Source: a virus (taxonomy: Duplodnaviria; Heunggongvirae; Uroviricota; Caudoviricetes). From it: a DNA stretch of 64,000 nt. Location: IMG/VR virus record IMGVR_UViG_3300029305_002265, one strand, 5' to 3'. The position numbers and the translations under genes are program-made. The notes beneath the pieces are model-generated. The model ran no database searches, was not told the origin of the DNA, and worked only from the letters and a program-made list of their open reading frames with translations. Of this stretch, positions 4,320 through 56,700 are shown one piece after another; the first letter of the stretch is position 1, and every line of letters starts with the position of its first letter.

Positions 4320-4394
4320 GGGAGATTAGCCTAGTGGTTTAGGCAGCGGACTGTTAATCCGCCTAGAGATGTTCAATCCATCTATCTCCCGCCA
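4320..4394 (+). tRNA. tRNA-Asn(GTT)
   Basis: GGGAGAT/ATCTCCC acceptor, GCGGA-CT-GTT-AA-TCCGC anticodon arm, TTCAATC T-loop, encoded CCA. Confidence 0.93.
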
Positions 4395-4398
4395 TTAT

Positions 4399-4474
4399 GG
4401 GGTTATAATTCAATTGGGAGAGTGCTACCCTTGCAAGGTAGAAGTTATGGGTTCAAGTCCCATTAGCTCCACCA
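4399..4474 (+). tRNA. tRNA-Ala(TGC)
   Basis: GGGGTTA/TAGCTCC acceptor with G3:U70, CTACC-CT-TGC-AA-GGTAG anticodon arm, CCA. Confidence 0.95.
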
Positions 4475-4552
4475 GGTAGCCAGTGTGAATGCAGGATTGG
4501 CTCTGCAGTGCGGCAACGGGGAGAGGCGCACTTAAATATCCCCTTTCCACCA
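4475..4552 (+). ncRNA. Candidate tRNA-sized structured RNA (hairpin plus pseudoknot) ending in ACCA
   Basis: 78 nt between tRNA-Ala and tRNA-Asp. Stems: AGCCAGT/ATTGGCT, AGTGCG/CGCACT, GGAGAGG/CCTTTCC. Does not form a cloverleaf. Confidence 0.4.
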
Positions 4553-4555
4553 TAT

Positions 4556-4632
4556 GGCTCCGTAGCTCAGTTGGTTAGAGCGCTAGCCTGTCACGCTATA
4601 GGTCAGGGGTTCGAGTCCCCTCGGAGTCGCCA
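4556..4632 (+). tRNA. tRNA-Asp(GTC)
   Basis: GGCTCCG/CGGAGTC acceptor, TAGC-CT-GTC-AC-GCTA anticodon arm, GGTTCGAGTCC T-arm, CCA. Confidence 0.95.
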
Positions 4633-4637
4633 TTTAT

Positions 4638-4720
4638 CGGAGGGCGGCGAAGTCGGAGAGTCGCGGCGGACTGTAAATCCGTTCCCTCTGGGTGAGTGGG
4701 TTCGACTCCCACCCCTCCGA
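4638..4720 (+). tRNA. tRNA-Tyr(GTA), C1:G72, no encoded CCA
   Basis: CGGAGGG/CCCTCCG acceptor, A73, GCGGA-CT-GTA-AA-TCCGT anticodon arm, long variable arm; followed by CCG. Confidence 0.92.
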
Positions 4721-4728
4721 CCGAATAT

Positions 4729-4802
4729 GGGTTGCTAGGCTAATGGTAAACCGGCAGGTTGTGGCCCTGCTCTTTCGTGTTCGATTCACGGGCTTCCCTC
4801 CA
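4729..4802 (+). tRNA. tRNA-His(GTG), atypical
   Basis: GCAGG-TT-GTG-GC-CCTGC anticodon arm, TTCGATT T-loop, CCA. Acceptor GGGTTGC/GCTTCCC has two U:U mismatches; U73; no G-1. Confidence 0.8.
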
Positions 4803-4810
4803 ATTTATAT

Positions 4811-4886
4811 GCTGGTGTGGCGCAATTGGTAGCGCAGCAGCCTTGTAATCTGCAGGTTCTCGGTTCGAGTCCGAGCATCAGCTCCA
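4811..4886 (+). tRNA. tRNA-Thr(TGT)
   Basis: GCTGGTG/CATCAGC acceptor, CT-TGT-AA loop, GGTTCGAGTCC T-arm, CCA. Confidence 0.95.
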
Positions 4887-4889
4887 TAT

Positions 4890-4968
4890 CGCAGGATAGT
4901 GTAATTGGCAACACGCTAGGCTCATAACCTGGAATTTATCTGAGGTTCGAATCCTCCTCCTGCAACCA
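4890..4968 (+). tRNA. tRNA-Met(CAT), initiator type
   Basis: C1xA72 mismatch (CGCAGGA/TCCTGCA), CTAGG-CT-CAT-AA-CCTGG anticodon arm, CCA. Confidence 0.88.
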
Positions 4969-5037
4969 AGTGATCGCGTTATGGAAACTTGCGAAGCCCA
5001 TAACCATAGGAGGTTCTGCGGAGCCTCCTATTATTAT

Positions 5038-5113
5038 CTCTCATTAGCTCAACGGATAGAGCATCTGGCTTCGAACCAGAGGGTTGCGCGTTCGAATCGT
5101 GCATGTGAGACCA
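5038..5113 (+). tRNA. tRNA-Arg(TCG)
   Basis: CTCTCAT/ATGTGAG acceptor, TCTGG-CT-TCG-AA-CCAGA anticodon arm, CCA. Confidence 0.93.
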
Positions 5114-7151: not shown

Positions 7152-8414
7152 ATGGCAAAAGCTATGGGCAAGAGTGCCCCTAAGAAGGCGATGACGACAA
7201 CTAAAGACCCAGTGCCGGAATATGTGTGTCCGCATTGTGGCAAGACTAAAAAGAAGTCAGAATTTTATGTATCTTCCGATCCAGCCGTATCTATTGGTGT
7301 AGCTTTCCCGTGTAAAGAGTGTGCGGAAAATATTGCTCGTAGATATGACCCCAAGACTGGTTCTTACTCCGATGTGACCGAAACATCTTTAAAAAATGCA
7401 CTTATGTATTTAGATAAGCCATTTTTAAAAACATTGTGGGATTCGGCATATAACGAGGTGCACGACGCATCATTGAAGCAACCAAAGCGTAATATGTGGG
7501 CAGCATATATTAAAAGTGTGCAGATGGTGAATTATAAGACGATGCGCTGGAGAGATGGAGATTTTGATGACATAAAGGTGAATGAGGAAATTCATTCCGA
7601 AACAACCACCCTACCACAAAACCAAGAAGTTCTTGAGGAGTGCGAAAAGAATCGTAAGGATGTTATTAGGTTAATTGGGTATGATCCTTTTGATAAAGAG
7701 GCGCCAGAAGACCAGCCTCTTCTATATGCTCAGCTGATCGGTTATATAGATGGCGACGGCAATAACGACGATATGACTCGTATTCTTGATTGCATAGAAA
7801 TGGTGCGTGGCTATTTACAAATGCAAAAAGTTAATGATATGGCAGCAAAGGCGTTTGCTAACTTGGCAAAGACTGGACAATCTGGCGAAATTAAAAATTA
7901 TATGGATACCAAGAAGAAACTAGCTGATGTTATTAGCCAATTAGCCGAACAGAGTTGTATTAGTCAAAAACATAATAAGAACTCAAAGAAGGGCGAAAAT
8001 ACTTGGACTGGTAAGATTAAGATGCTCAAGGATCTAAATCTTCGTGAAGCTGAAAACAATGGCTTTGATATTGGTACTTGTCGTGGAATGCAACAAGTGT
8101 TGGAGATTAGCGATGCTTCTATTATGAAGCAATTGGCTCTTGATGAATCTGAATGGTCAGATATGGTTGCCGAACAGCGTCAGAAGATTGTTTCGTTACA
8201 GTCTGAAAGAGATATATATAAAGAAATTAATAGAATACTTTTAAGAGAAAATATCGACCTCAGAGATACTTTATCTGAGAACGACCTACTTGATGAATCT
8301 AATTTGCAAAACCTTAAACAACTCTTCTCTGCTTTCTCGGATATAGAGAAAGATGATGAGGAAGACGAAGATTCGTTGGAAGATGCATCTAGTGAGGTGG
8401 ATGCCGATGAATAA
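7152..8414 (+). CDS. Zinc-finger protein upstream of TerL, possible terminase small-subunit equivalent
   Basis: CPHC...CKEC at the N-terminus; overlaps the TerL start. Function inferred from position only. Confidence 0.55.
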   Translation: MAKAMGKSAPKKAMTTTKDPVPEYVCPHCGKTKKKSEFYVSSDPAVSIGVAFPCKECAENIARRYDPKTGSYSDVTETSLKNALMYLDKPFLKTLWDSAYNEVHDASLKQPKRNMWAAYIKSVQMVNYKTMRWRDGDFDDIKVNEEIHSETTTLPQNQEVLEECEKNRKDVIRLIGYDPFDKEAPEDQPLLYAQLIGYIDGDGNNDDMTRILDCIEMVRGYLQMQKVNDMAAKAFANLAKTGQSGEIKNYMDTKKKLADVISQLAEQSCISQKHNKNSKKGENTWTGKIKMLKDLNLREAENNGFDIGTCRGMQQVLEISDASIMKQLALDESEWSDMVAEQRQKIVSLQSERDIYKEINRILLRENIDLRDTLSENDLLDESNLQNLKQLFSAFSDIEKDDEEDEDSLEDASSEVDADE

Positions 8415-10473
8415 TCTGAATTTTAATGATTATAAATTTAAAATTATAGAAAATATTGACGATGAAGACTTGCTAAGTATGTTCGATAGTGACAATGTCG
8501 TATATGTTAAACCTGGTATCTACGCAATGTCCACGAGAAAGCTTGAGGCTTTGATTAAAATTGCATATATACAAAAATATTATCAATGTAATCCAGTAAG
8601 ATTTATTGATAACTTTTTTAATATTGAGTTACTTGATGCACAGGCTTATATTGTTCAGAGAACTTGGAATTGCCCTAATGTTTTAGTGCTTGCGAGTCGT
8701 GGTTTTGGTAAGTCAACGGTAATCGACTTGATTCTTATGGCCAAAGATATGTTATTCTCTAATATATGGACATACATAGCTTCGGGTACCGGTGGACAGG
8801 CAGAGCAGACATTTACCAAACTTGAACAGATAGCAAACGACGGAATTGATGAGATGAAGGGTTCTACTGGATATATATTTAAAAATGAAGTCTCCATTAA
8901 TAATGCCGCCGGTGATGGATTTAGTCACGGAAGTAATGGATTTAAATACACACTTTATAACGGTTCGTTTACACAGACTCTTAACAGTAATATCGACGCT
9001 AAGAGAGGCGCCAGAGGTTCCGTAGTATTTGATGAGTGTGGTTTCTTGTCTGACGAAATGATTAACGTTTATGGCGCATTTGCAGCCGTTAACAAAAACT
9101 TTGCATTAGGTAAGGATAGAGATGGACACTCTATTGACCCCATTCGTTTAAGAACATTTGCAACCAATATACCGAACCAAAAATTTTATATTAGTTCGGC
9201 GTCTGATACTAGCACGAAATTCTATAGGCTTTATAGAGAGTTCTCTAAGAAGCAGATAATGGGCGATAGAGATTATTGTGTTATTCAGGTTGACTGCGAT
9301 GTAGTTCTTAACCCTACGATACACGGTGAAGCGGTTAACGCTCTTCTATCTCGTAGTACCATTGAATCCGAAATGCAGACTAACCCAGAGAAGGCACGTC
9401 GTGAGTACTATTGTCAGTTTACTTCTGATGCGGGTGCCGCAGCCATTATTAGGCGTGGTGTTATCGCTAGAAATAGTGAAACAAGAGTTCCTTTGCTTTA
9501 TAACGATACAAATGACAAGAAGTTTGTTATATGTTATGACCCTGCGCGTAGTCGAGATAATAGCGTTATCTTGATTATGGAAATTTATATGGATGTGGCT
9601 ACCAAGGAATATAAAGGCAGAATTGTCAACTGCGTTAACTTGGTTGATATAGGCAAAAAGAGAAAAACTCCTATGCAGACCCCAGACCAGATTCAGTATT
9701 TGAAAGAACTTATTCTTGCATATAATGGAGATGCTCCAGACTATGAAAATATTGAAGCTGTTATGATAGACGCCGGTTCTGGTGGAGGCGGCGTAAACAT
9801 TGCCGACTATTTAATGGAAGATTGGGTTGACGATAGAGGTAGAACTCATCGTGGCTTAATTGATAAAGAATATAGTGCAGATTATGTATCTAAATATCCC
9901 AATGCCATCGATAAGGTGAGACTAATGTCTCCTTCTCAATTCAAGTCAATGATGTGTGAGGCACTCATTGAAATGATGAATATGGATCTAATTAGTTTAA
10001 CAACTGATTATGACCATAAGGGATATTTAACTATATTTGAAACAGATGAAAAAGAGTTAAATAAAGAAAAGAAAAAGATTGAAGAAGAATTGAGAAAGCA
10101 AAGGGTGCCCGAGGATGAGATTCCCGTGAGGGCGCGAGAAATGCTCAAAGATGCTTCTTGTGTAAAAACCAAGATGGTTAAATTAGATCCTTATCAGGAA
10201 ATTGCACTGAGTAATATAGACGCTCTTAAAGAAGAGATGGTTAATATTGTTCGTAAAAAGCGTGATAGTGGTAAGGATTCTTTTGATTTAATACCAGAAA
10301 AACAAAATAAACTTCATGATGACCGTTTCTACTGTGCTTGTTTGGCCGCATATTGGCTATCTGAAAAGCGTAGAGAGAACATTACTTCTCGTAAGAAACT
10401 GGGAAATATGAAAGAAATACTTGATAAATTTGTAGTTTCTAATGGAAAACACATTGATAAAATTTTCGGATAG
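8407..10473 (+). CDS. terL: Terminase large subunit
   Basis: Walker A ASRGFGKS, Walker B VVFDE, nuclease-domain YDPARSRD and HDDRF. Start chosen behind the GAGGTG RBS. Confidence 0.92.
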   Translation: MNNLNFNDYKFKIIENIDDEDLLSMFDSDNVVYVKPGIYAMSTRKLEALIKIAYIQKYYQCNPVRFIDNFFNIELLDAQAYIVQRTWNCPNVLVLASRGFGKSTVIDLILMAKDMLFSNIWTYIASGTGGQAEQTFTKLEQIANDGIDEMKGSTGYIFKNEVSINNAAGDGFSHGSNGFKYTLYNGSFTQTLNSNIDAKRGARGSVVFDECGFLSDEMINVYGAFAAVNKNFALGKDRDGHSIDPIRLRTFATNIPNQKFYISSASDTSTKFYRLYREFSKKQIMGDRDYCVIQVDCDVVLNPTIHGEAVNALLSRSTIESEMQTNPEKARREYYCQFTSDAGAAAIIRRGVIARNSETRVPLLYNDTNDKKFVICYDPARSRDNSVILIMEIYMDVATKEYKGRIVNCVNLVDIGKKRKTPMQTPDQIQYLKELILAYNGDAPDYENIEAVMIDAGSGGGGVNIADYLMEDWVDDRGRTHRGLIDKEYSADYVSKYPNAIDKVRLMSPSQFKSMMCEALIEMMNMDLISLTTDYDHKGYLTIFETDEKELNKEKKKIEEELRKQRVPEDEIPVRAREMLKDASCVKTKMVKLDPYQEIALSNIDALKEEMVNIVRKKRDSGKDSFDLIPEKQNKLHDDRFYCACLAAYWLSEKRRENITSRKKLGNMKEILDKFVVSNGKHIDKIFG

Positions 10474-19360: not shown

Positions 19361-19416
19361 AATTTGAGTTATTAAAATTATAATATAAAAATTTTTATTA
19401 AATGGAGGAAAATATT

Positions 19417-19432
19417 ATGGCACTAGCACGGT
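19417..19432 (+). CDS. Putative exon 1 of the major tail protein gene (MALAR plus one T)
   Basis: Strong GGAGG RBS 8 nt upstream of ATG; ends at the U of a P1 U:G pair (CGGT/GCCG). Confidence 0.5.
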
Positions 19433-19835
19433 TAATTATGTTAGCCGCTAATAATGCCCATATATAGTAATATGTATGATAAAATAACCCATTGAATTGC
19501 TGGAACACCCTAAAGTCTATTTAACTACAGCATAAGGATGAAATACGCCTAAGTGCGAATGTGACGAAAGTAGAAAAAATAAATAGAATGACATATGGTT
19601 AAATCCTAAGTGTTATATAATGGGCAATCAGCATCTAAGACTCGAATAGAGTAAAGTTCAACGATCAGAGAGGAATCTCGTAGGTGACAAGTAGTCAATG
19701 TTGCCGAAGTGGTGGGAATCCTACACAGAGGATTATGATATGATCTGCACTCGTGCGAAAGCGCGAGGCTAGTTTATAGCGATATTGTGGACTGACAATC
19801 CAAAATTTAAGTGTTATAAAAATAAGTTATACAAT

Positions 19836-19846
19836 ACAAAATGATT
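19836..19846 (+). promoter_or_regulatory. ACAAAATGATT motif copy upstream of intron endonuclease
   Basis: Exact 11-mer just before the AAGGAGG RBS of the GIY-YIG ORF. Confidence 0.5.
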
Positions 19847-19864
19847 ATAAAGGAGGTGGACAAG

Positions 19865-20647
19865 ATGAGGGCTATATGTGGAATTTATTGCATAGAAAAT
19901 TTAGTAAATCACAAAAAATACATAGGACAATCAATAGACATACAGAATAGATGGAAAGACCATAGACGAGAATTAGATGGGAATAGACATCGTAACGAGC
20001 ATCTTCAGAGGGCGTGGAATAAGTATGAAGAACATAATTTTTATTTTTACATAGTTGAAGAATGTGAAACGTCTTTATTGAATGAACGAGAGATTTATTA
20101 CATTGATTATTTTAACTGCTTAAATAACAAATATAGTTATAATCTTGAATTGGGTGGTAATGCTAATAAAATTCTTTCTTCTGAGACAAGAGAAAAAATG
20201 TCTGAATCTGCAAAGGCGAGAAGTTATGGAGCCAATAATTCAAATGCGCGTCCCGTGTATTGTCCACAACTTGATATGATATTTGGCTGCATTGCCGATG
20301 TTGAGAGAGAAGGATATGCTTGCGCTTCAAGTGTTAGACTTTGTTTGAGGGGCAAGAGCAATACCGCCGGGAAGCATCCAATCACTGGAGAGAAACTAAC
20401 TTGGTGTGATGCGAAAGATACTAAGAGGGTTGTACCTAAAGAAAGAAAATATGATCAGCATGGTGCGATATATTGCATTGAGTTAGACAGAATATTTGAT
20501 GGTGGTCCATCTCAGGTCGACAGAGAGGGTGTTGCAAGTAGAACTTGCGTTGCGAGATGTTTAAAGGGTGAGCGCCAATCTGCTGGCAAACATCCTATTA
20601 CTGGTGAAAAACTTCACTGGGCCATTTTAGAAAATAGTAACACTTAA
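19865..20647 (+). CDS. GIY-YIG homing endonuclease with NUMOD3 and two NUMOD1-like repeats
   Basis: GIYCIENLVNHKKYIGQS...RWKDH...EREIYYI...YN; LSSETREKMS; two AGKHPITGEKLxW repeats. Confidence 0.93.
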   Translation: MRAICGIYCIENLVNHKKYIGQSIDIQNRWKDHRRELDGNRHRNEHLQRAWNKYEEHNFYFYIVEECETSLLNEREIYYIDYFNCLNNKYSYNLELGGNANKILSSETREKMSESAKARSYGANNSNARPVYCPQLDMIFGCIADVEREGYACASSVRLCLRGKSNTAGKHPITGEKLTWCDAKDTKRVVPKERKYDQHGAIYCIELDRIFDGGPSQVDREGVASRTCVARCLKGERQSAGKHPITGEKLHWAILENSNT

Positions 20648-20662
20648 ATTATATTAAACATA

Positions 20663-21424
20663 ATGGAGTACGCTTTTGATAGAGCGATTTCCGTCGCTGG
20701 TACTTATGTAGGTGCTAACGCTGCTAAAAACATTGAAGCTGGCCAGCTTGCTTTCTGGGCAGAGCAGATCACCGAGCCTACACTTAACTTTACTTCTGAA
20801 ACCGAAGAGATCATGGACGCACGTAACAACGTCGTAATGGTTCTTCAGAACGGTAGAGGTGCTACTTTCGGTGCTTCTAACGCATTCTTCAATACTTCTA
20901 TCCTTGCTGCACAGGTTGGTACCGCAGTTAAGGATTCTACTGGTGCAACTATCTCCAAGTTCGAGATGGTTACCGCCAATGACGAAGGTACAGCAAACAT
21001 CACCTACGAGCCCGTTGGTGATTGTGTTGTTTATGAGCTCAACACCGACGGTTCTTTCAAGACTGCTACCGCATCTGAGACTGTAAAGGTTGAAGCTAAG
21101 GCACTTACTGGTGGTACTAAGGGAGCTAAGTATCTTGTTGTTTACGATATCGAGGCTCCTGCAGGTGAGAGAATTACTGCTCTTGCTGACGCAGAGAACG
21201 AGCTTCTTGACGTTACCGCAGAGGTTCTTCTTCGTGACCTTTGCTCTCAGGAAATCTACTTCGCATTCCTCTTCATGAGAGGTAAACTTTCTGGTGAGGC
21301 TGAGTGGGGTATGGCAAGAGACGGTGCTCATGCGTTTGAGATTACCGCAATGCCTGCTTACTGCGACGTAGAGAAGCAGCTTGTAGACATCGTTATCGTT
21401 AAGGACGAGACTCTTAGAGCTTAA
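20663..21424 (+). CDS. Major tail (tube) protein, main exon
   Basis: 253 aa, highly biased codons like the capsid gene, followed by a terminator. No SD sequence before ATG 20663. Confidence 0.75.
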   Translation: MEYAFDRAISVAGTYVGANAAKNIEAGQLAFWAEQITEPTLNFTSETEEIMDARNNVVMVLQNGRGATFGASNAFFNTSILAAQVGTAVKDSTGATISKFEMVTANDEGTANITYEPVGDCVVYELNTDGSFKTATASETVKVEAKALTGGTKGAKYLVVYDIEAPAGERITALADAENELLDVTAEVLLRDLCSQEIYFAFLFMRGKLSGEAEWGMARDGAHAFEITAMPAYCDVEKQLVDIVIVKDETLRA

Positions 21425-49100: not shown

Positions 49101-51153
49101 CTTATAATGTCAAGATTGCACATGATGATGCGGATAAAACTGCAAATAAGATTGCAATAGATGAGGGCGCACTTGAACAGACGCTTAATAGAGTGTTTGC
49201 GAATGTGCTTAACCCAGAAGTTGATCAAGCCGAATCCGAATCCAAGAATGAACCCTGGGCATTAGAAAAGACACTCCTTTCTGTTAAGGAAGTGCTTGAT
49301 GGTATTCGCACAAACACAACGAAGGCAGAATCTGTTGAAATTGCTCCTGTAAACATGGAGGTTGATAATGTATTAGCAACCGAGAATACTTTGGCGGCGA
49401 TTAAAACTGCAGTCGAGGCAATTAACAAGAAGGTTATTAAAGGCACGAAGGCTAAAACATCTAATGGCGGTGCCGAAAAGAAAGCCGGCGTAGGCAAGAA
49501 GAATACAGAAAACTACGCTGGTTCCCAGTATTTCACTGAAAAACTTAAGACCCAGACTATGCAACTTGCGAAGTTCAGAGCGCAGTTAATGACCACCGGC
49601 AAATTGACCGACGATGTTGATGCGCAGATTTACGAGTTACTTGATGCACTGGCGCAGGTTAAGAATGGCCCCGACTTCTCTCAGTGGGCTCAGAAGTTCC
49701 AGCAGTTAAAAACATCGGTTGGAATTACGGACATTTTTGACAAGGCTGAAGGTAAAGAGGCTACAGCTTCTTATCAGCAGTTAATCGAATTCCAGAAGAC
49801 TCGTAATAAATTAGAACTTCAGTACGAGAAAGCACAAGACGGTTCAGCACTCAAGCAGTTCTATTCAGAGCAGCTAACACAAATGGATAACGTAATCGCA
49901 AAGCAGGAAGAAATGCTCGAAAACGAAGAGTATGAGGCAAAGCTTGCGAAAATACGTGAAGAACAGGCCAGAAAACTTGGTGAGGCAGAGGCTAAAGCTG
50001 CAGATAAGGCGGCGAAGAAAACTGCTACCAATGCTAAGAAGATGGCTCAGAGAGAAGCTATGCTTGGTAAGGCTGGTAATGCCGTTGGACGCGCAGAAAA
50101 CACTTGGATGAGTGCTATTGGTCTTGAGGGTGAGTTACCTGCTGGTTTTGTAGCAGATATAGACAAATATTATCAGAAACTTGATGCACTCAGAAAGAAA
50201 CATCAAGAGTTGAAAAATAGTGATATTATTTCCGAAGAACAAAAGAAGGAATTAATTGATCAGACAATAAGCATTAATAAGATGACTGAGGAAATTGGCG
50301 GATTGATATCTCAGTATCAACGCCTAAGCGGAGATAATACTGAGGTCTTGGGTGCTAGTACTCTCAGTGATAAAGCGACAATAGGTGAATACGAACAGGC
50401 ATTAAGACAAGCGGTAATGACCGCTACTAATGGCAAGGCTCAAATCAAAGGTTTCGACCACGATACAAAAACTTTAACCTATACTTTAAAAACGGGTAAA
50501 CACGCGTTTACTGAATATACGGCGGAAGTTAGGGAGCTAGATCATCAATACACGTCTACCGCTGGTAAGACCAAGAAGATGGAAACCTTCCTTGAGGCAA
50601 CCAAGCGTAAGATGAAAGAACTTACGTCTTATTTCTCTGGTATGGCGGTGTTTAATCGTGTTGGTCAGGAACTGAGACGTGGCATTCAGTATGTCAGAGA
50701 GATTGATTTAGCATTGACGGAGCTCAAGAAGGTAACAGACGAGACAGAAGAAACTTATGATAAATTCTTAGATACTGCGGCAAAGACTGGTGCTAGACTT
50801 GGTACTACGATTTCTGCTGTAACTGAGGCGACTGCAACGTTCGCTAAGCTTGGATACAGTATGGAACAAGCTACTGAGATGGCTGAGGCTGCTATTGTAT
50901 ATAAAAATGTTGGTGACAATATTGAAAGTACTGGAGATGCTGCGGACAGTATTATCAGTACGATGAAGGGCTTTAGACTTGAAGCGTCTGAGTCTATGGC
51001 AATTGTTGATAGGTTTAATGAGGTAGGAAACCGCTTTGCGATTACTTCTCAGGGCATTGGCGAAGCATTAAGGCTTTCTGCGAGTGCTTTAAGTGAGGGC
51101 GGCAACTCACTCGACGAATCAATTGGTTTAATTACGGCCGCAAATGAGGTGGT
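46187..51153 (+). CDS. Tape measure protein, exon 1
   Basis: TP901-type core motifs (REIDLALTELKKVTDE...DRFNEVGNRFAITSQGIGEAL...LITAANEV); ends at the U of a P1 U:G pair. Confidence 0.9.
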
Positions 51154-51279
51154 AAGATTTATGCCACGTAGCCATAGTAATATGGTTACTAGAAGTGACT
51201 TAAAACGGGGAAACTCCTGAGAAGGACAATCCCGTGGGTAAGAATATGTAAATATTTTGTAAATAATATTATAATTATA

Positions 51280-51307
51280 TTGACATTTTAAAATAAAGTA
51301 TTATAAT
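51280..51307 (+). promoter_or_regulatory. Consensus sigma70/sigmaA-type promoter inside intron A
   Basis: TTGACA-16 nt-TATAAT with AT-rich upstream DNA. Confidence 0.6.
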
Positions 51308-51316
51308 ATATACACT

Positions 51317-51327
51317 ACAAAATGATT
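51317..51327 (+). promoter_or_regulatory. ACAAAATGATT motif copy in intron A L6
   Basis: Exact 11-mer with no ORF behind it. Confidence 0.45.
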
Positions 51328-51514
51328 AATATTCCCTGTAACGATCACAGAGACATAGGTAACTATTCTCGTATGTCACTATCCTATATATTAGGATAAA
51401 GAGATGATCTAAACTCATGCTATAATCTAATAATGAAACATGAGAGTTAGCCAGAAATGACTAACCGCCATAGAAATATGGTCAGTAGGCGTGGGAGCCG
51501 AAAGTAATAGATTG

Positions 51515-51718
51515 GAATGACCCTTCAAGCGTAGGAACCGCGCTAAAAACTTTGACATTACGTCTTAGAGGTTCAAAAACAGAACTTGAGGAAATGGGCG
51601 AAGACGTATCCGATATGGCTACGACCACATCCCAACTTCAAGCAAAACTTTTAGCTCTAACTGGTGGACAAGTTGACATCATGTTAGACGAAAATACGTT
51701 TAAGAATTCGACTGAGAT
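51515..51718 (+). CDS. Tape measure protein, exon 2 (204 nt)
   Basis: NDPSSVGTALKTLTLRLRGSKTELEEMGED...NTFKNSTE; phase 2 at both ends. Confidence 0.9.
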
Positions 51719-51846
51719 AAATTATATGTCTCCATATGGGGAAACTTATATGCTATGTGCGTAAACATAGATAACAACTATATCGGTTAAAGACCAGAGG
51801 TGGTTCAGACCGAGCAAAGATTTATAATATTGCAAGGAGAAGAATT

Positions 51847-52029
51847 ATGAAAAAATATCGTTGTGAGTCGGTTAGATTGTGTAGATTTTTATATGGTCTT
51901 GGTTTTGATAAAGAATCCATACAATATAATGGACAAGAAGCATGGTTGTTTGATAGAAGTCCTGAGTTGCAAGAAAGTTTGGATTTCTTTTTTTACATGA
52001 GGCAAAAATTAAAAAACAATACAAAATGA
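51847..52029 (+). CDS. Small intron-encoded protein (possibly DUF5659-like)
   Basis: 60 aa, AAGGAG RBS; Y..S..L..FL..LGF...W.F..S.EL pattern. Confidence 0.7.
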   Translation: MKKYRCESVRLCRFLYGLGFDKESIQYNGQEAWLFDRSPELQESLDFFFYMRQKLKNNTK

Positions 52030-52031
52030 TT
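52021..52031 (+). promoter_or_regulatory. ACAAAATGATT motif copy upstream of intron B endonuclease
   Basis: Exact 11-mer before the AAGGAG RBS. Confidence 0.5.
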
Positions 52032-52048
52032 AATTATTAAAGGAGCGA

Positions 52049-53554
52049 ATGAATATGAAATTAAGTTTTTATGATTGGTGTGTTCAAAATGAACGCAAAG
52101 ATTTATTGGGTCGATGGGATTATATTTTAAATAATTGTAGCCCAAAGGATATTTCATATGGTAGTGGGAAAGACATGTATTTTATATGTGATAAGGAACC
52201 AAATCATACATCTGAAAAACACCGGATTAGTCATATTACCAATATTGGTATTGATATTGATTGTAAGCAATGTAATTCTTTTTATCAATGGTGCATAGAT
52301 AACTCTCGACAAGATTTAATAGATGCGTGGGATTATGATTTGAATAAAGATGATATACATTTTGTGCCATATGGCAGTGGTAAAAAATTTTATTTTTGTA
52401 TTGAAACTAATATGCCAAGCATTCGATATGCTCTTTGTGAAATCACGGGATACAAACAATTGTGTCCTATTAAAAAGTTTTACAATTCATTTGGATATTG
52501 GTTGGTATCAACATATGGCAATACAGCAATTGAAAAATACTGGTCTGACAAAAATAAACGCACTCCTTGGGATTATGATAAGGGCAGTGGAAAATATGTG
52601 TGGTTTAAGTGTTTAGAAAAAGACTATCACGATGATTATTTTTCGCAAATTTATCATTTCGTTAAAGGTTCAAGATGCCCGTGGTGTGCAGGTAAAAAAA
52701 TACATCCATTGGATTCGTTTGCTCAATACAATATTAATAGGTTGGGCAAGGATTTTTTAGAAAAGTATTGGTGTAAAGACAATACCATAGATCCGTGGTC
52801 GATACGTCCATTTACAAATGGATTACAGGTACATATTCAATGTCAGCATAAAGATTATCATCAGTATTGGGTAGAAGCATCAGATTATAGCATAGGTGTA
52901 GACTGCCCATTCTGTAATAGAAGTAGATTGCATACTAATGATAGTCTTGGCGTGTTGTATCCAAAAACCGTAATTTTATGGTCGGATAAAAATGAGAAGA
53001 GTCCATATGACTATCATCCACATAGTCATAAATTTGCATGGTGGAAATGTGAAAACGGCATTCACGAAGATTATGCCAGAAGGATTTCAGACGTGACATC
53101 ACAGGGATTTGACCGTTGTTCTAGTTGTGTGCGAGCAGAACATGAGTCATCTTTTCAAAAAGAAGTTAGAATGTTTTTAGAAAATATGCAATATCAATTA
53201 CTACATGAGTTTGATTGCAATATTGTGCCAATAAATCCAAATACAAAACAAAAAATGCCTTTTGATAACGAATTATGTGGGGTTTATGGTAAAAATATTA
53301 TTATAGAAACGCATGGAATACAACATTATGAGCTTGGTGGGTGGCATATCACGCGAGCTAAGCAGAGAGGTATTACGCCAGAAGAAGAGTTTGAATATCA
53401 AAAATGGAAGGATGCCTTTAAGAAAGAGTTTGCAATTTCTAACGAATATGAATATTTAGAAATACCATACTGGACTATTGAAGACGGAACATACAAAAAC
53501 TTAATTTTAGAGAAAATTAATCAAATTAAATTGCAATATTATAAAAATGCGTAG
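52049..53554 (+). CDS. Putative homing endonuclease: zinc-ribbon (DUF4379-like) repeats plus C-terminal Vsr-like PD-(D/E)xK domain
   Basis: Repeated W...N..sP.D...GSgk..WfkC...H...CPwC units; C-terminal ESSFQ...PFDN...IIIETHGIQHY...D..K..FA...LEIPYW. Confidence 0.8.
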   Translation: MNMKLSFYDWCVQNERKDLLGRWDYILNNCSPKDISYGSGKDMYFICDKEPNHTSEKHRISHITNIGIDIDCKQCNSFYQWCIDNSRQDLIDAWDYDLNKDDIHFVPYGSGKKFYFCIETNMPSIRYALCEITGYKQLCPIKKFYNSFGYWLVSTYGNTAIEKYWSDKNKRTPWDYDKGSGKYVWFKCLEKDYHDDYFSQIYHFVKGSRCPWCAGKKIHPLDSFAQYNINRLGKDFLEKYWCKDNTIDPWSIRPFTNGLQVHIQCQHKDYHQYWVEASDYSIGVDCPFCNRSRLHTNDSLGVLYPKTVILWSDKNEKSPYDYHPHSHKFAWWKCENGIHEDYARRISDVTSQGFDRCSSCVRAEHESSFQKEVRMFLENMQYQLLHEFDCNIVPINPNTKQKMPFDNELCGVYGKNIIIETHGIQHYELGGWHITRAKQRGITPEEEFEYQKWKDAFKKEFAISNEYEYLEIPYWTIEDGTYKNLILEKINQIKLQYYKNA

Positions 53555-53735
53555 AGACTGCAGGTTATATGTGGTAACACATATAATGAAGTTGTTCGCC
53601 CTGTCGTAAGACGAGCGTAATATACAGTCCGCTCTCACAGTATAACCAAACAATGAAGTGTGAGAGATAGGCCGAAAGACCTATCCGCCACAGAAATGTG
53701 GTTAGTAACCATTCTCTGGTGAAAGTAACAGTAGG

Positions 53736-56700
53736 ATTAAGAGAAATGGCAGAAGCATGGGAAGATATGAATGATATCCAGCGTGCATCTGCATTGGAAT
53801 TGATGGGAGGCAAGAGGCAGGCAAACGTTCTTTCCGCCCTCATCCAAAACTTCGACACAGTAGAAAGTGTAATCGAGACCTCCGCCAACAGCGCAGGCTC
53901 GGCATTAAAAGAAAATGAACGCTACCTTGATTCAATTCAAGGTAAAATTGACCAATTCAACAACGCTATGCAAGCAATGTGGAGCAACACGCTTGATAGC
54001 GGCTGGGTCAAGGGTTTTGTAGAATTAGCTACTCAACTCGTTAAAATCGTTGATGCAATTGGCCCTCTTAACATTGCTCTTGTCGGTTTCTTTACATATC
54101 TTGAAAAGAAGCATGGTGTTCTGAGCAATTTCTTTAAGCCGGCAGAAGATGGCGTCGAAGCGCTCAAGAAGCAACTCGCAAAAGCCGAGCAAGATCTTGC
54201 TAAGGCAACTCAAGCAGACATGCAACATGGTAGTAAGAAAACTGCTCAAAACAGAAGAGACGCAGAAGAAAGAGTTGCAATTTTGAAATCTAAAATTCAA
54301 GAATCTTCTTCAGAAGCGATTCTTGACGGCATCGATGAATCTTTTGACCCAGGAAAAGTCAAGAAATCAATTGGCGGCAAAAAAGGCGCTATTACAAAAC
54401 GAGCAAAGAAGCTCGAAAGTGAGGGCATGTCTTTTGCTCAAATTCAAGAAGATCCTAAAATTAAACAATGGACGCAAGAAGTCAAAGAAGGTGAACAAGC
54501 ACTTAATGACTATAATGCAAAAGTCGTACAAGCCGATGTTATTTTGAAACAGAAGAATGCAACCACCGCTCAGGCTGCCGGTGTTGAAAACGCAAAGGCA
54601 GGAGCAGAAGCCGGTGATGCTGTTGCGACAAATGCCGGAACTGTGGCTGATGCAAATGCAACTACTGCTACGACTACAAAAACAGCGGCTACCTGGGCTG
54701 ATATTTGGGCTGAGATGACGCGCACCGGTGCGACTGGTGCATCTGTGGCCGCAACCATTAAGCAAGTGTTAGCAACTAAGCTTGCCAATTCGGCTTTGGT
54801 GCAGAAGGGGCTCGCAATTATGGGTGTTACAGCGGCAGAGGGTGCAAGCATTCCTGTGACAACCATGCTCGCAGGTGGTTTTGTTGGTCTTGCTAGTAGC
54901 ATATGGTCTGCTATTACAGCCATGTGGACATTCATGACTACAACTCCAATTGGTTGGATATTGCTTGCCGTAGGTGCTGTTGTTGCTCTTGGCGCAGCAT
55001 TTTCTGCTATACATAAAACCACAGAAGAACTTAAAGAAGAATTAGACGGTTTCAAGTCCGAACTCTCTGACGTTCGCTCCGAATTAGATTCTGTTAACTC
55101 TGAACTTGAAACAACCAACAAGCGTATGGAAGAACTTCTTGCGAAAGATAAATTAACATTCGAAGAGCAAGAAGAACTTGATAGATTGCGTGCTACAAAT
55201 GATGAATTGGAGCGTCGTAAAAAGCTTTTAGAGAGCGAAGAAGAATACAAAACCGGGCTCGTTGGTCGCCAGGCGGCAAGAGTTGTTGACAGTACAAAGA
55301 ATAATTATGACTTTTGGGAAAGTATTCTTCCTGTTGTACGTCATTTCAAAACAACTGCGGAAGAAGATGTAAAAAATAATATTGACGATTATAAGAAGAT
55401 TAAAGAAAAATTTGATAATGCGTCCACCTTAATATGGCAAGAGGAATATCAAAAGCAACTCGATGCAAAAGCTGCTGAAATAGATAAATATATTCTCGAA
55501 TTATCAGAGGCATTAGATGGTGTGGAATACGGCGACAGTGAAGAGTCTGATGCAGCACTAGACTATTTGGCTGAGCTTCAAGATACTTATGGTATTGCGC
55601 GTGGCTCCGCTAGTGCAGAAACAAATGCTATTAAGGGTGTATTCAATAAACCAGAATTCGAATCTATGTCTAAAGCTATCAACTATTATGTTGAGGCGTT
55701 AAAAGATGGAGATGAGAATGCTGCCACATCTATTGAGGAAATCATCAATAACAACGAAGATTTGGTTGCAGACCTTGAAGCCCATGGTGTTGATGCGGAT
55801 AAAGCTATTAAGTATTGGACACAGCTTGGCTCGGATGCGAATTTTTCTACTCTTGAGGGTAAAACTGAAGAGATTAAAAGGGCGACAGAAAAACTTCCAG
55901 ATGCGTTTAACAACATTAGTCAATTTATGGATGGTGACGAGGTTGATAAGACTGCTATCGCAGAATATTTTAAAGGCACATCCGATAAAACCCGCGAAGA
56001 AATTGCTAAACTCATCCAGGATATCAATGACGGCAAGATTGACGTCAATAATGCTCTAAAGAAGTTTGAACTTTTTGGTGTACAATCCGTAGTTGAAATT
56101 GAAATTAGTGAAGTTCAAACAAACTTCAAAGATACCTTTACAGACCTTGAAAATGCTGATGGACTGATTAACACATTCCAAGAACTTGCTGATGCTATTG
56201 GCAGTACCTCTAAGGCTATGGATGCGTTGAATGCGGCGCAGGCCGAAATGGACTATAGTGGGCGAGTTTCTATTGAGACCGCGTTAAAACTTATGGAGTC
56301 AACTGATGATTACAGTAAAGTTTTAACTATCTCGGAAGGTAAGCTTGTACTTGCCGAAGACGCAGAAGAAAACTTAATTGACGCTCGACTTGAGGGCATG
56401 AAGGCTTCTGCCCTTAAGGCTTTAGAAGAAGCTAAAGCAGCAAGAGAAACTACCGTATTGGCTCGTTCTACTGCGGAGACAGCATTGTCAACATATAATT
56501 CTGCGATAGAGACTGAAATGGCAGCCGCTGTTACCGCTACCGCATGGGATAAAGTGCTTGCTGCAGCCGCTGGTTTATGGGCCGGTATTAAGAGTTTGTT
56601 TACCGATGAGTCTTGGACCGAGGCATACGATAGAGCATATCAAGAAACCTTGAATTCACTTGGTGGTGATAGAGCTGCTGAGGTTAAAGCAAAATATGCC

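Follow-up and report, generated by a model that had tools for sequence, protein, structure and literature searches.

We analyzed a 64,000-nucleotide (nt) stretch of tailed-phage DNA (Caudoviricetes; IMG/VR record IMGVR_UViG_3300029305_002265), called the window here, in which the start of a tail tube gene is interrupted by an intervening sequence carrying a homing endonuclease gene. A first-pass annotation, made from the letters of the window alone, had recognized a group I intron and had placed its 5′ splice site at codon 6, after U19432, from where canonical splicing does not restore the reading frame. Our comparison of alleles points instead to a mobile group I intron, apparently of IA type, within codon 3 (phase 1), which is probably spliced after C19423 through a P1 helix with a C·A pair at the cleavage position. 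The features of the locus are listed below; a caret marks the 5′ or 3′ splice site, and A2 is an alignment of nine intron sequences that was used for the consensus fold (RNAalifold) and for comparing P1 columns.

19404-19408 (+): Shine-Dalgarno sequence GGAGG of the tail tube gene, read directly, 8 nt before the ATG.
19417-19423 (+): coding part of exon 1, ATGGCAC (Met, Ala and the first base of Gln codon 3), placed by homology to intron-less alleles.
19419-19425 (+): proposed 5′ strand of P1, GGCAC^UA, with cleavage after C19423; pairs with 19452-19458.
19424-20666 (+): group I intron of 1243 nt, beginning with UAG and ending with AAUGG, omega G at G20666; from Rfam and the comparison with intron-less alleles.
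19429-19447 (+): upper hairpin within the P1 loop, taken as P1 by the first-pass annotation and by Rfam; from pairing and allele comparison.
19452-19458 (+): putative internal guide sequence UAAUGCC, whose A19454 would be the wobble partner of C19423; from its invariance and its distance to P2.
19459-19478 (+): P2 hairpin (RNAalifold, columns 57-76 of A2).
19488-19767 (+): catalytic core P3-P9 with extra hairpins between P7 and P3′ (P7.1/P7.2-like, probable IA-type); from Rfam and the consensus fold.
19804-19816 (+): 5′ strand of a 13-bp long-range helix closing the endonuclease-gene loop; exact reverse complement of 20638-20650.
19865-20647 (+): GIY-YIG homing endonuclease gene, 260 amino acids (aa), with its own AGGAGG at 19851-19856; from Pfam and PHROG.
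20638-20650 (+): 3′ strand of the 13-bp helix, with AACACTTAAATT kept in all alleles and in the related introns at other sites.
20663-20665 (+): in-frame AUG inside the 3′ end of the intron (AAUGG), where gene callers start, giving MEYAFDR.
20667-21424 (+): exon 2 of the tail tube gene (AG TAC GCT ... TAA); from the spliced product and family matches.

Judged by its homologues, the interrupted gene is a YomU-type tail tube gene, and the window bears an SPbeta-type tail module. The protein matches the PHROG 2729 virion structural protein (E 5.7e-17) and has more than 400 homologues in total. Pfam PF27173 (YomU_Tube) is precomputed on all 120 homologues examined. YomW- and YomV-like genes neighbour the homologues. 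Among the best 120, the N-terminus is MAQY, MAQF, MANY or MSQY in 71 and MEY, like that of the open reading frame (ORF) called in the window, in 21. Intron-less homologues open with MAQYAFDR.

The allele set at the codon-3 site comprised seven sequences: the window and L002 (the same as L001), L003, L011, L012, L013 and L014, the last six being distinct contigs fetched for six MEY-starting tube proteins. For comparison, we used the intron-less alleles L004-L008, which read ATGGCACAATAC or ATGGCACAATTC at the gene start, and contigs with sister introns at the codon-7 site (L027 and L029) and at the codon-37 site (L009, L010 and L015). Neither the locus nor the tube protein had a match in megablast and tblastn searches of 50,697 phage records. 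When viral contigs were scanned with a 16-mer of the core, only L009 and L010 stood out from chance matches, and a metagenome scan with ATTATGGCACTAGC returned 120 chance matches and no additional allele.

By its sequence and predicted fold, the element is a real group I intron near the start of the tail tube gene. Rfam RF00028 (Intron_gpI) matches 19423-19767 along the full model (1-253) with 48.5 bits and E 6.6e-11. With the gathering score set at 50, the match falls 1.5 bits short, and default whole-window Rfam scans therefore miss the intron; a whole-window scan at E <= 0.01 likewise returned tRNAs only and did not pick up the intron, while a scan of positions 50800-54200 of the window gave no match at E <= 1. 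Over 197 nt, the core shares 80% identity with a sequence in Clostridium phage D-1873 that is annotated as a group I intron. Folding the nine sequences together gives a consensus of 96 pairs, with compensatory changes at 33; in it, two covarying hairpins (columns 267-280 and 284-306) lie between the 5′ strand of P7 and the 3′ strand of P3, where they are candidates for the P7.1/P7.2 helices of subgroup IA. The gene within the intron encodes an N-terminal GIY-YIG catalytic domain (Pfam PF01541, E 5.7e-9, residues 5-85) and matches PHROG 314 and 7168, both 'homing endonuclease', at about E 1e-34. Rfam, Pfam and PHROG thus support what the first-pass annotation had seen here, namely that a group I intron carrying a homing endonuclease interrupts the major tail gene close to its start.

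The boundaries of the intron are fixed by the intron-less alleles. Homology of the window to these (ATGGCACAA or ATGGCACAG and onwards) ends after C19423 and restarts at A20667, and the boundaries cannot slide, the bases on either side being different. The last intron base is G20666, as is required of an omega G. All seven alleles share the arrangement ATGGCAC^TAG...AATGG^A(A/G)TA, the fetched six beginning ATGGCAC^TAGCACG, and exon 1, ATGGCAC, is identical in 7/7. Joining C19423 to A20667 gives ATG GCA CAG TAC and restores the intron-less N-terminus MAQYAFDR in silico; MAQY is obtained in all seven alleles. The spliced product of the window would have 254 aa and is 94% identical to the intron-less homologue P0001. 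The GGAGG Shine-Dalgarno sequence is kept in both intron-bearing and intron-less alleles.

We then considered how the RNA could present a splice site at C19423. The guide AAUAAUGCCC is unchanged in 7/7 alleles, and C19423·A19454 occupies the cleavage position in all of them, in place of the U·G wobble expected of a P1 helix. A two-tier stem, with the upper hairpin sitting inside the P1 loop, is part of the minimum-energy fold in the window, L003 and L013, and L009 has the same architecture. Between the window and the codon-37 sister intron, three P1 pairs change in a compensatory manner (GC to CG, GC to AU and CG to GC), in addition to C·A versus U·G at the cleavage site; seven rows of A2 have C·A for this last pair, and the other two have U·G. 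The P1 pairing holds in register in 56/63 cells of the alignment; shifting the partner strand by 1-3 columns lowers this to 11-32. The wobble partner is equidistant from P2 at all three insertion sites. As to the start codon, its G is base-paired in P1. On unspliced RNA, the upstream ATG opens a 16-codon ORF (MALARLIMLAANNAHI; 19417-19470) that runs across P1 and P2 to the tandem stops TAG TAA.

Introns of this family are also found at two further points of the tube gene, after codon 7 and within codon 37. These sister introns have P2, the core, the helix strand AACACTTAAATT and the terminal AACATAATGG in common with the intron of the window. The codon-7 intron (L027:1219-2510, and L029) reads TTCGAT^TAA...TTA G TCG with exon 2 AGAGCC (GAT^AGA), while the codon-37 intron (L009, L010 and L015; for example L009:1256-2526) reads CAGAT^TAG...ATA G TCTG with exon 2 TACTGAA (AT^T). 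Both sites have an unambiguous canonical U·G P1, and the frame is restored by the second G of AATGG alone, which confirms G20666 as omega G, an assignment that the first-pass annotation had already put forward among its options. In A2, the first bases of the codon-37 intron (UAG) and its guide share columns with the lower stem of the window.

Our model suggests that the YomU-type gene is interrupted within codon 3, in phase 1, by a 1243-nt mobile intron whose 3′ part holds a GIY-YIG gene in a loop. The P1 helix formed by GGCAC^UA and UAAUGCC would present the 5′ splice site, with C19423·A19454 replacing the usual U·G, and the 3′ splice site would fall directly after omega G20666. Ligation of ATGGCAC to AGTAC would then yield MAQYAFDR, identical to the intron-less N-terminus, and the spliced mRNA would be translated from the strong Shine-Dalgarno sequence and ATG at 19404-19419. 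The predicted ligated junction is ATTATGGCAC^AGTACGC, as opposed to CACGGT^AGTAC if splicing took place after U19432. The Ala-Gln codons (GCA C^AG) provide no U at this position, a plausible reason for the C at the splice site. From these comparisons, we infer that the RNA splices itself and that it uses the C·A helix to do so.

The variation among the codon-3 alleles is consistent with an active ribozyme. Sixteen core pairs vary among the seven alleles; 14 of these are canonical in every allele, and in 4 of the 14 both sides have changed. The upper hairpin, next to the invariant guide, varies at 10 columns. Since helix pairing is kept and the guide AAUAAUGCCC is invariant beside a variable hairpin, we argue for continuing selection on splicing: the ribozyme is probably under purifying selection in the codon-3 lineage, and splicing is probably still needed.

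The upper hairpin itself appears to have a history. Its pairing is maintained by compensatory changes, with the supposed wobble position itself not conserved. It is colinear with exon 1 and P1 of L027 and L029, at a local score reached in 4/2000 shuffles. When the codon-7 allele is aligned globally with the window, the two are colinear through ATGGCAC, shortened codons 4-7 and the former cleavage site and guide, after which a 10-nt insertion supplies the new guide immediately before P2. The upper hairpin is probably the relic P1 of a codon-7 sister intron, whose site lies 14 nt downstream, together with a decayed piece of the former exon. Codons 3-7 would now be encoded downstream of the intron, with the relic kept as a helix and not as a splice site. 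We give somewhat better than even credence to the fuller scenario, in which a natural, functional C·A intron carries a relic P1 that records a 14-nt move by means of a new guide, and in which the old and new P1 may compete in alleles with U·G, modulating tube yield. What is noteworthy in this otherwise ordinary mobile intron is the conserved C·A splice-site pair together with the relic P1. If our reading is correct, the locus shows C·A serving at the 5′ splice site of a natural group I intron, and it bears a readable trace of guide-sequence retargeting in a short-range change of insertion site. A relic P1 of this kind can mislead a careful reader and the Rfam model alike.

Public sequencing runs were compared with this part of the window. 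Six feces-metagenome DNA runs contain 97-100% of its sampled words, so that the sequence is no isolated error, while four bovine metatranscriptome runs contain 7-17% of them, and the contigs of the latter are mostly less than 90% alike to the window. The joints in these contigs, and a loose end at 19421-19423, stem from relatives that read ATGGC(A/T)CAATATGCA and represent either intron-less DNA or spliced RNA.

Several observations weigh against splicing at C19423 through C·A. The lower stem is invariant in the seven alleles, and its covariation relies on the sister introns at other sites. A canonical U·G persists in the upper hairpin of the window, L003 and L011, and this hairpin could compete. 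A P10 pairing with exon 2 is absent. In model ribozymes, C·A is less efficient than U·G, while a tail tube protein is needed abundantly. The start codon lies partly within P1, and ribosome loading and splicing could interfere with each other. Finally, the metatranscriptome contigs come from relatives only, and spliced RNA and intron-less DNA are indistinguishable in them.

Among the alternatives, the one that survives best is that splicing is dispensable and that the tube protein is made from unspliced RNA at AUG 20663, giving MEYAFDR, perhaps by reinitiation after the endonuclease stop. We regard it as unlikely. The first-pass annotation had pointed out the in-frame AUG at 20663, and reading the sequence bears it out. 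AUG 20663 stands 15 nt past the endonuclease stop and is in frame in 7/7 alleles, the resulting protein would be one residue shorter than normal, and such a start may have kept an intermediate allele viable during the shift of insertion site. However, a search for a Shine-Dalgarno sequence upstream of AUG 20663 found none, a strong handicap for a very abundant protein in what is presumably a low-GC Gram-positive host. AAUGG is, moreover, the intrinsic 3′ end of the family: it ends the sister introns too, and at the codon-37 site its AUG is out of frame, so that an in-frame AUG here would be a one-in-three coincidence. The ribozyme helices, the guide and the upstream Shine-Dalgarno sequence with its ATG are all conserved, and splicing would excise AUG 20663.

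The MEY start is explained by gene calling. Judged from the alignments, the MEY starters are intron-bearing alleles whose start gene callers put within the intron, a point verified for the 7 fetched alleles. Consequently, 21 of the best 120 protein clusters of the tube family have a false MEY N-terminus (with interruption by the intron confirmed in the 7 fetched alleles). Sister-site alleles receive truncated called proteins that start with MAATY (from GTG) or MDARNN, and about 25 more of the best 120 clusters are truncated, most of them probably by introns at other sites. With their false MEY and truncated starts, metagenome gene catalogues therefore misreport the tube protein.

A second possibility is that both helices are used, with productive splicing at C19423 competing with a cryptic, non-productive cleavage at U19432 that lowers or tunes tube yield in the U·G alleles. 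Three alleles do keep a 7-bp helix with U·G, maintained by compensatory changes. However, the proposed competition is pure conjecture, the position of the relic relative to P2 departs from the rule of the family, and four alleles have lost the relic U·G with no sign of compensation elsewhere. We consider this possibility unlikely as well, marginally more so than translation of the unspliced RNA.

The reading of the first-pass annotation, in which the site lies after U19432 and a junction stop is bypassed by amber readthrough, a suppressor tRNA or a non-G 3′ splice site, is very improbable in our judgment. Its raw observations stand. The hairpin CGGU^UAA-UUAUG-UUAGCCG with U19432·G19444 is present, and the Rfam covariance model also aligns P1 there; its translations were reproduced as well, omega G20665 giving MALAR*, omega G20666 giving MALAR*YAFDR, and joining to 20655 giving MALARLNIMEYAFDR. 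A canonical U·G is found in this hairpin in the window, L003 and L011. The seven alleles differ as follows at the position of U19432:G19444, and in the junction codon that splicing after U19432 would create.

Window: U·G, junction UAG.
L002: C·A, junction CAA.
L003: U·G, junction UAG.
L011: U·G, junction UAA.
L012: U-A, junction UAA.
L013: C-G, junction CAG.
L014: C-G, junction CAA.

Splicing after U19432 would thus leave a stop in 4/7 alleles. The junctions of L002, L013 and L014 are CAA or CAG, encoding Gln as in MAQY, which would suit a site after U19432. However, the pair drifts to Watson-Crick in L012, L013 and L014, and U19432·G19444 is therefore probably not the true cleavage-site wobble. 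The guide of this hairpin also lies 12 nt farther from P2 than the sister-intron guides, and MALAR is the N-terminus of no homologue among the best 120. The splice site after U19432, and with it the frame paradox, is probably wrong on the strength of this variation among alleles. A one-base assembly error in exon 1, which had been suggested to account for the paradox, is not needed: the six other independent contigs share the start ATGGCACTAGCACG, and seven independent assemblies that agree exclude such an error.

Readthrough fares no better. The UAA junctions in L011 and L012 exclude an amber-specific mechanism. TAG is a rare stop in the window, ending 2/49 long plus-strand ORFs versus 39 for TAA and 8 for TGA, which could be taken to favour readthrough. 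However, it ends two ordinary genes (ORFs 8353-10473 and 52049-53554), each with a separate ORF after it. The long ORFs of the window are uninterrupted under code 11, and the pattern does not fit recoding of TAG as Gln. A scan for tRNAs found a cluster of eight, and the search for a CUA-anticodon tRNA found none among these eight tRNAs of the window.

4320-5113: 8-tRNA cluster (Asn, Ala, Asp, Tyr, His, Thr, Met, Arg), from the tRNA scan; no suppressor among them.

The non-G 3′ splice site had been proposed on the basis of a complementarity that is real: ATTATGTT (19435-19442) is the exact reverse complement of AACATAAT (20657-20664). These 8 bp are mismatched without compensation in L002 and L011-L014 and are missing in the codon-7 intron, and we rejected them as a P10-like helix. 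The splice site that they imply has no G before it and was rejected too. We also discarded a pairing of UAG (19424-19426) with CUA (19448-19450), the 3′ triplet being CUA, CCA or UUA among the alleles. With splicing at C19423, the frame paradox disappears, and readthrough, a non-G splice site and unspliced translation all become unnecessary for the tube gene. The least credible alternative, a 5′ splice site after A19422 with omega G20665, would give MAEYAFDR, open in all seven alleles, but the frame of the sister-intron alleles is restored with the second G of AAUGG and not with the first, an A at the point of cleavage would have neither a helix nor a wobble partner, and no homologue among the best 120 starts with MAEY.

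A non-exhaustive literature search found no natural C·A group I splice site, and to our knowledge C·A at this position is known only from engineered ribozymes. In P1, C·A can stand in for U·G, with which it is isosteric (PMC5769748, citing Doudna et al. 1989). In an engineered system, U·G alone was more reactive than C·A, and splicing with C·A was accurate (PMC11417360). Introns with C at their 5′ splice site occur in nature, with a C·G pair, according to the title of Hur and Waring 1995 as listed in PMC6468297. The intron described here resembles those introns and the engineered C·A variants in that the last exon base is C and not U. Unlike the C·G introns named in that title, its partner is A, with the wobble geometry kept, and the pair is conserved in seven natural alleles.

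In other respects, the intron is like the phage IA introns with GIY-YIG genes (T4 td/I-TevI type): the P3-P9 core bears predicted hairpins between P7 and P3′, the intron ends in an omega G, its GIY-YIG ORF is free-standing and placed in a peripheral loop, and the gene that it interrupts is conserved and essential. Over about 180 nt, its core shares 72-81% identity with a widespread intron family of Firmicutes phages, found in Clostridium phages c-st and D-1873, Bacillus cereus phages, Enterocloster phages and Staphylococcus kayviruses. It differs from all these introns in having C·A rather than U·G at the 5′ splice site and a two-tiered P1 with an internal hairpin. The endonuclease ORF lies here in a loop after P9, closed by the 13-bp helix, whereas that of the td intron is placed earlier within the intron. 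The tail tube gene of Staphylococcus phage Twort, orf142, likewise has more than one insertion site, being interrupted by three group I introns (Landthaler and Shub 1999, as cited in PMC11878797). In contrast to Twort as described there, the sites reported here lie in different phage genomes, one per allele examined and all within the first ~50 codons, in another host clade and in a tube protein of the SPbeta/YomU type.

The endonuclease cargo varies across alleles with a near-identical ribozyme. Endonucleases of the type encoded at 19865-20647 of the window have 260-268 aa and a GIY-YIG domain; that of L002 (L002:1991-2983) has 330 aa with GIY-YIG and NUMOD3, and the cargo protein of L012 (L012:1385-2185) has 266 aa and only a faint NUMOD3 match. 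This suggests that cargo has been swapped inside one and the same intron loop. In addition, a different intervening sequence is present in L017 (L017:1-200), where it ends ...AAAAATTTTGGG just before CCAGAAACAAT (Ala-Arg-Asn-Asn, at about codon 50); the contig is cut, with the 5′ end of the sequence outside it, and called proteins of this type start with MAIYYKLL.

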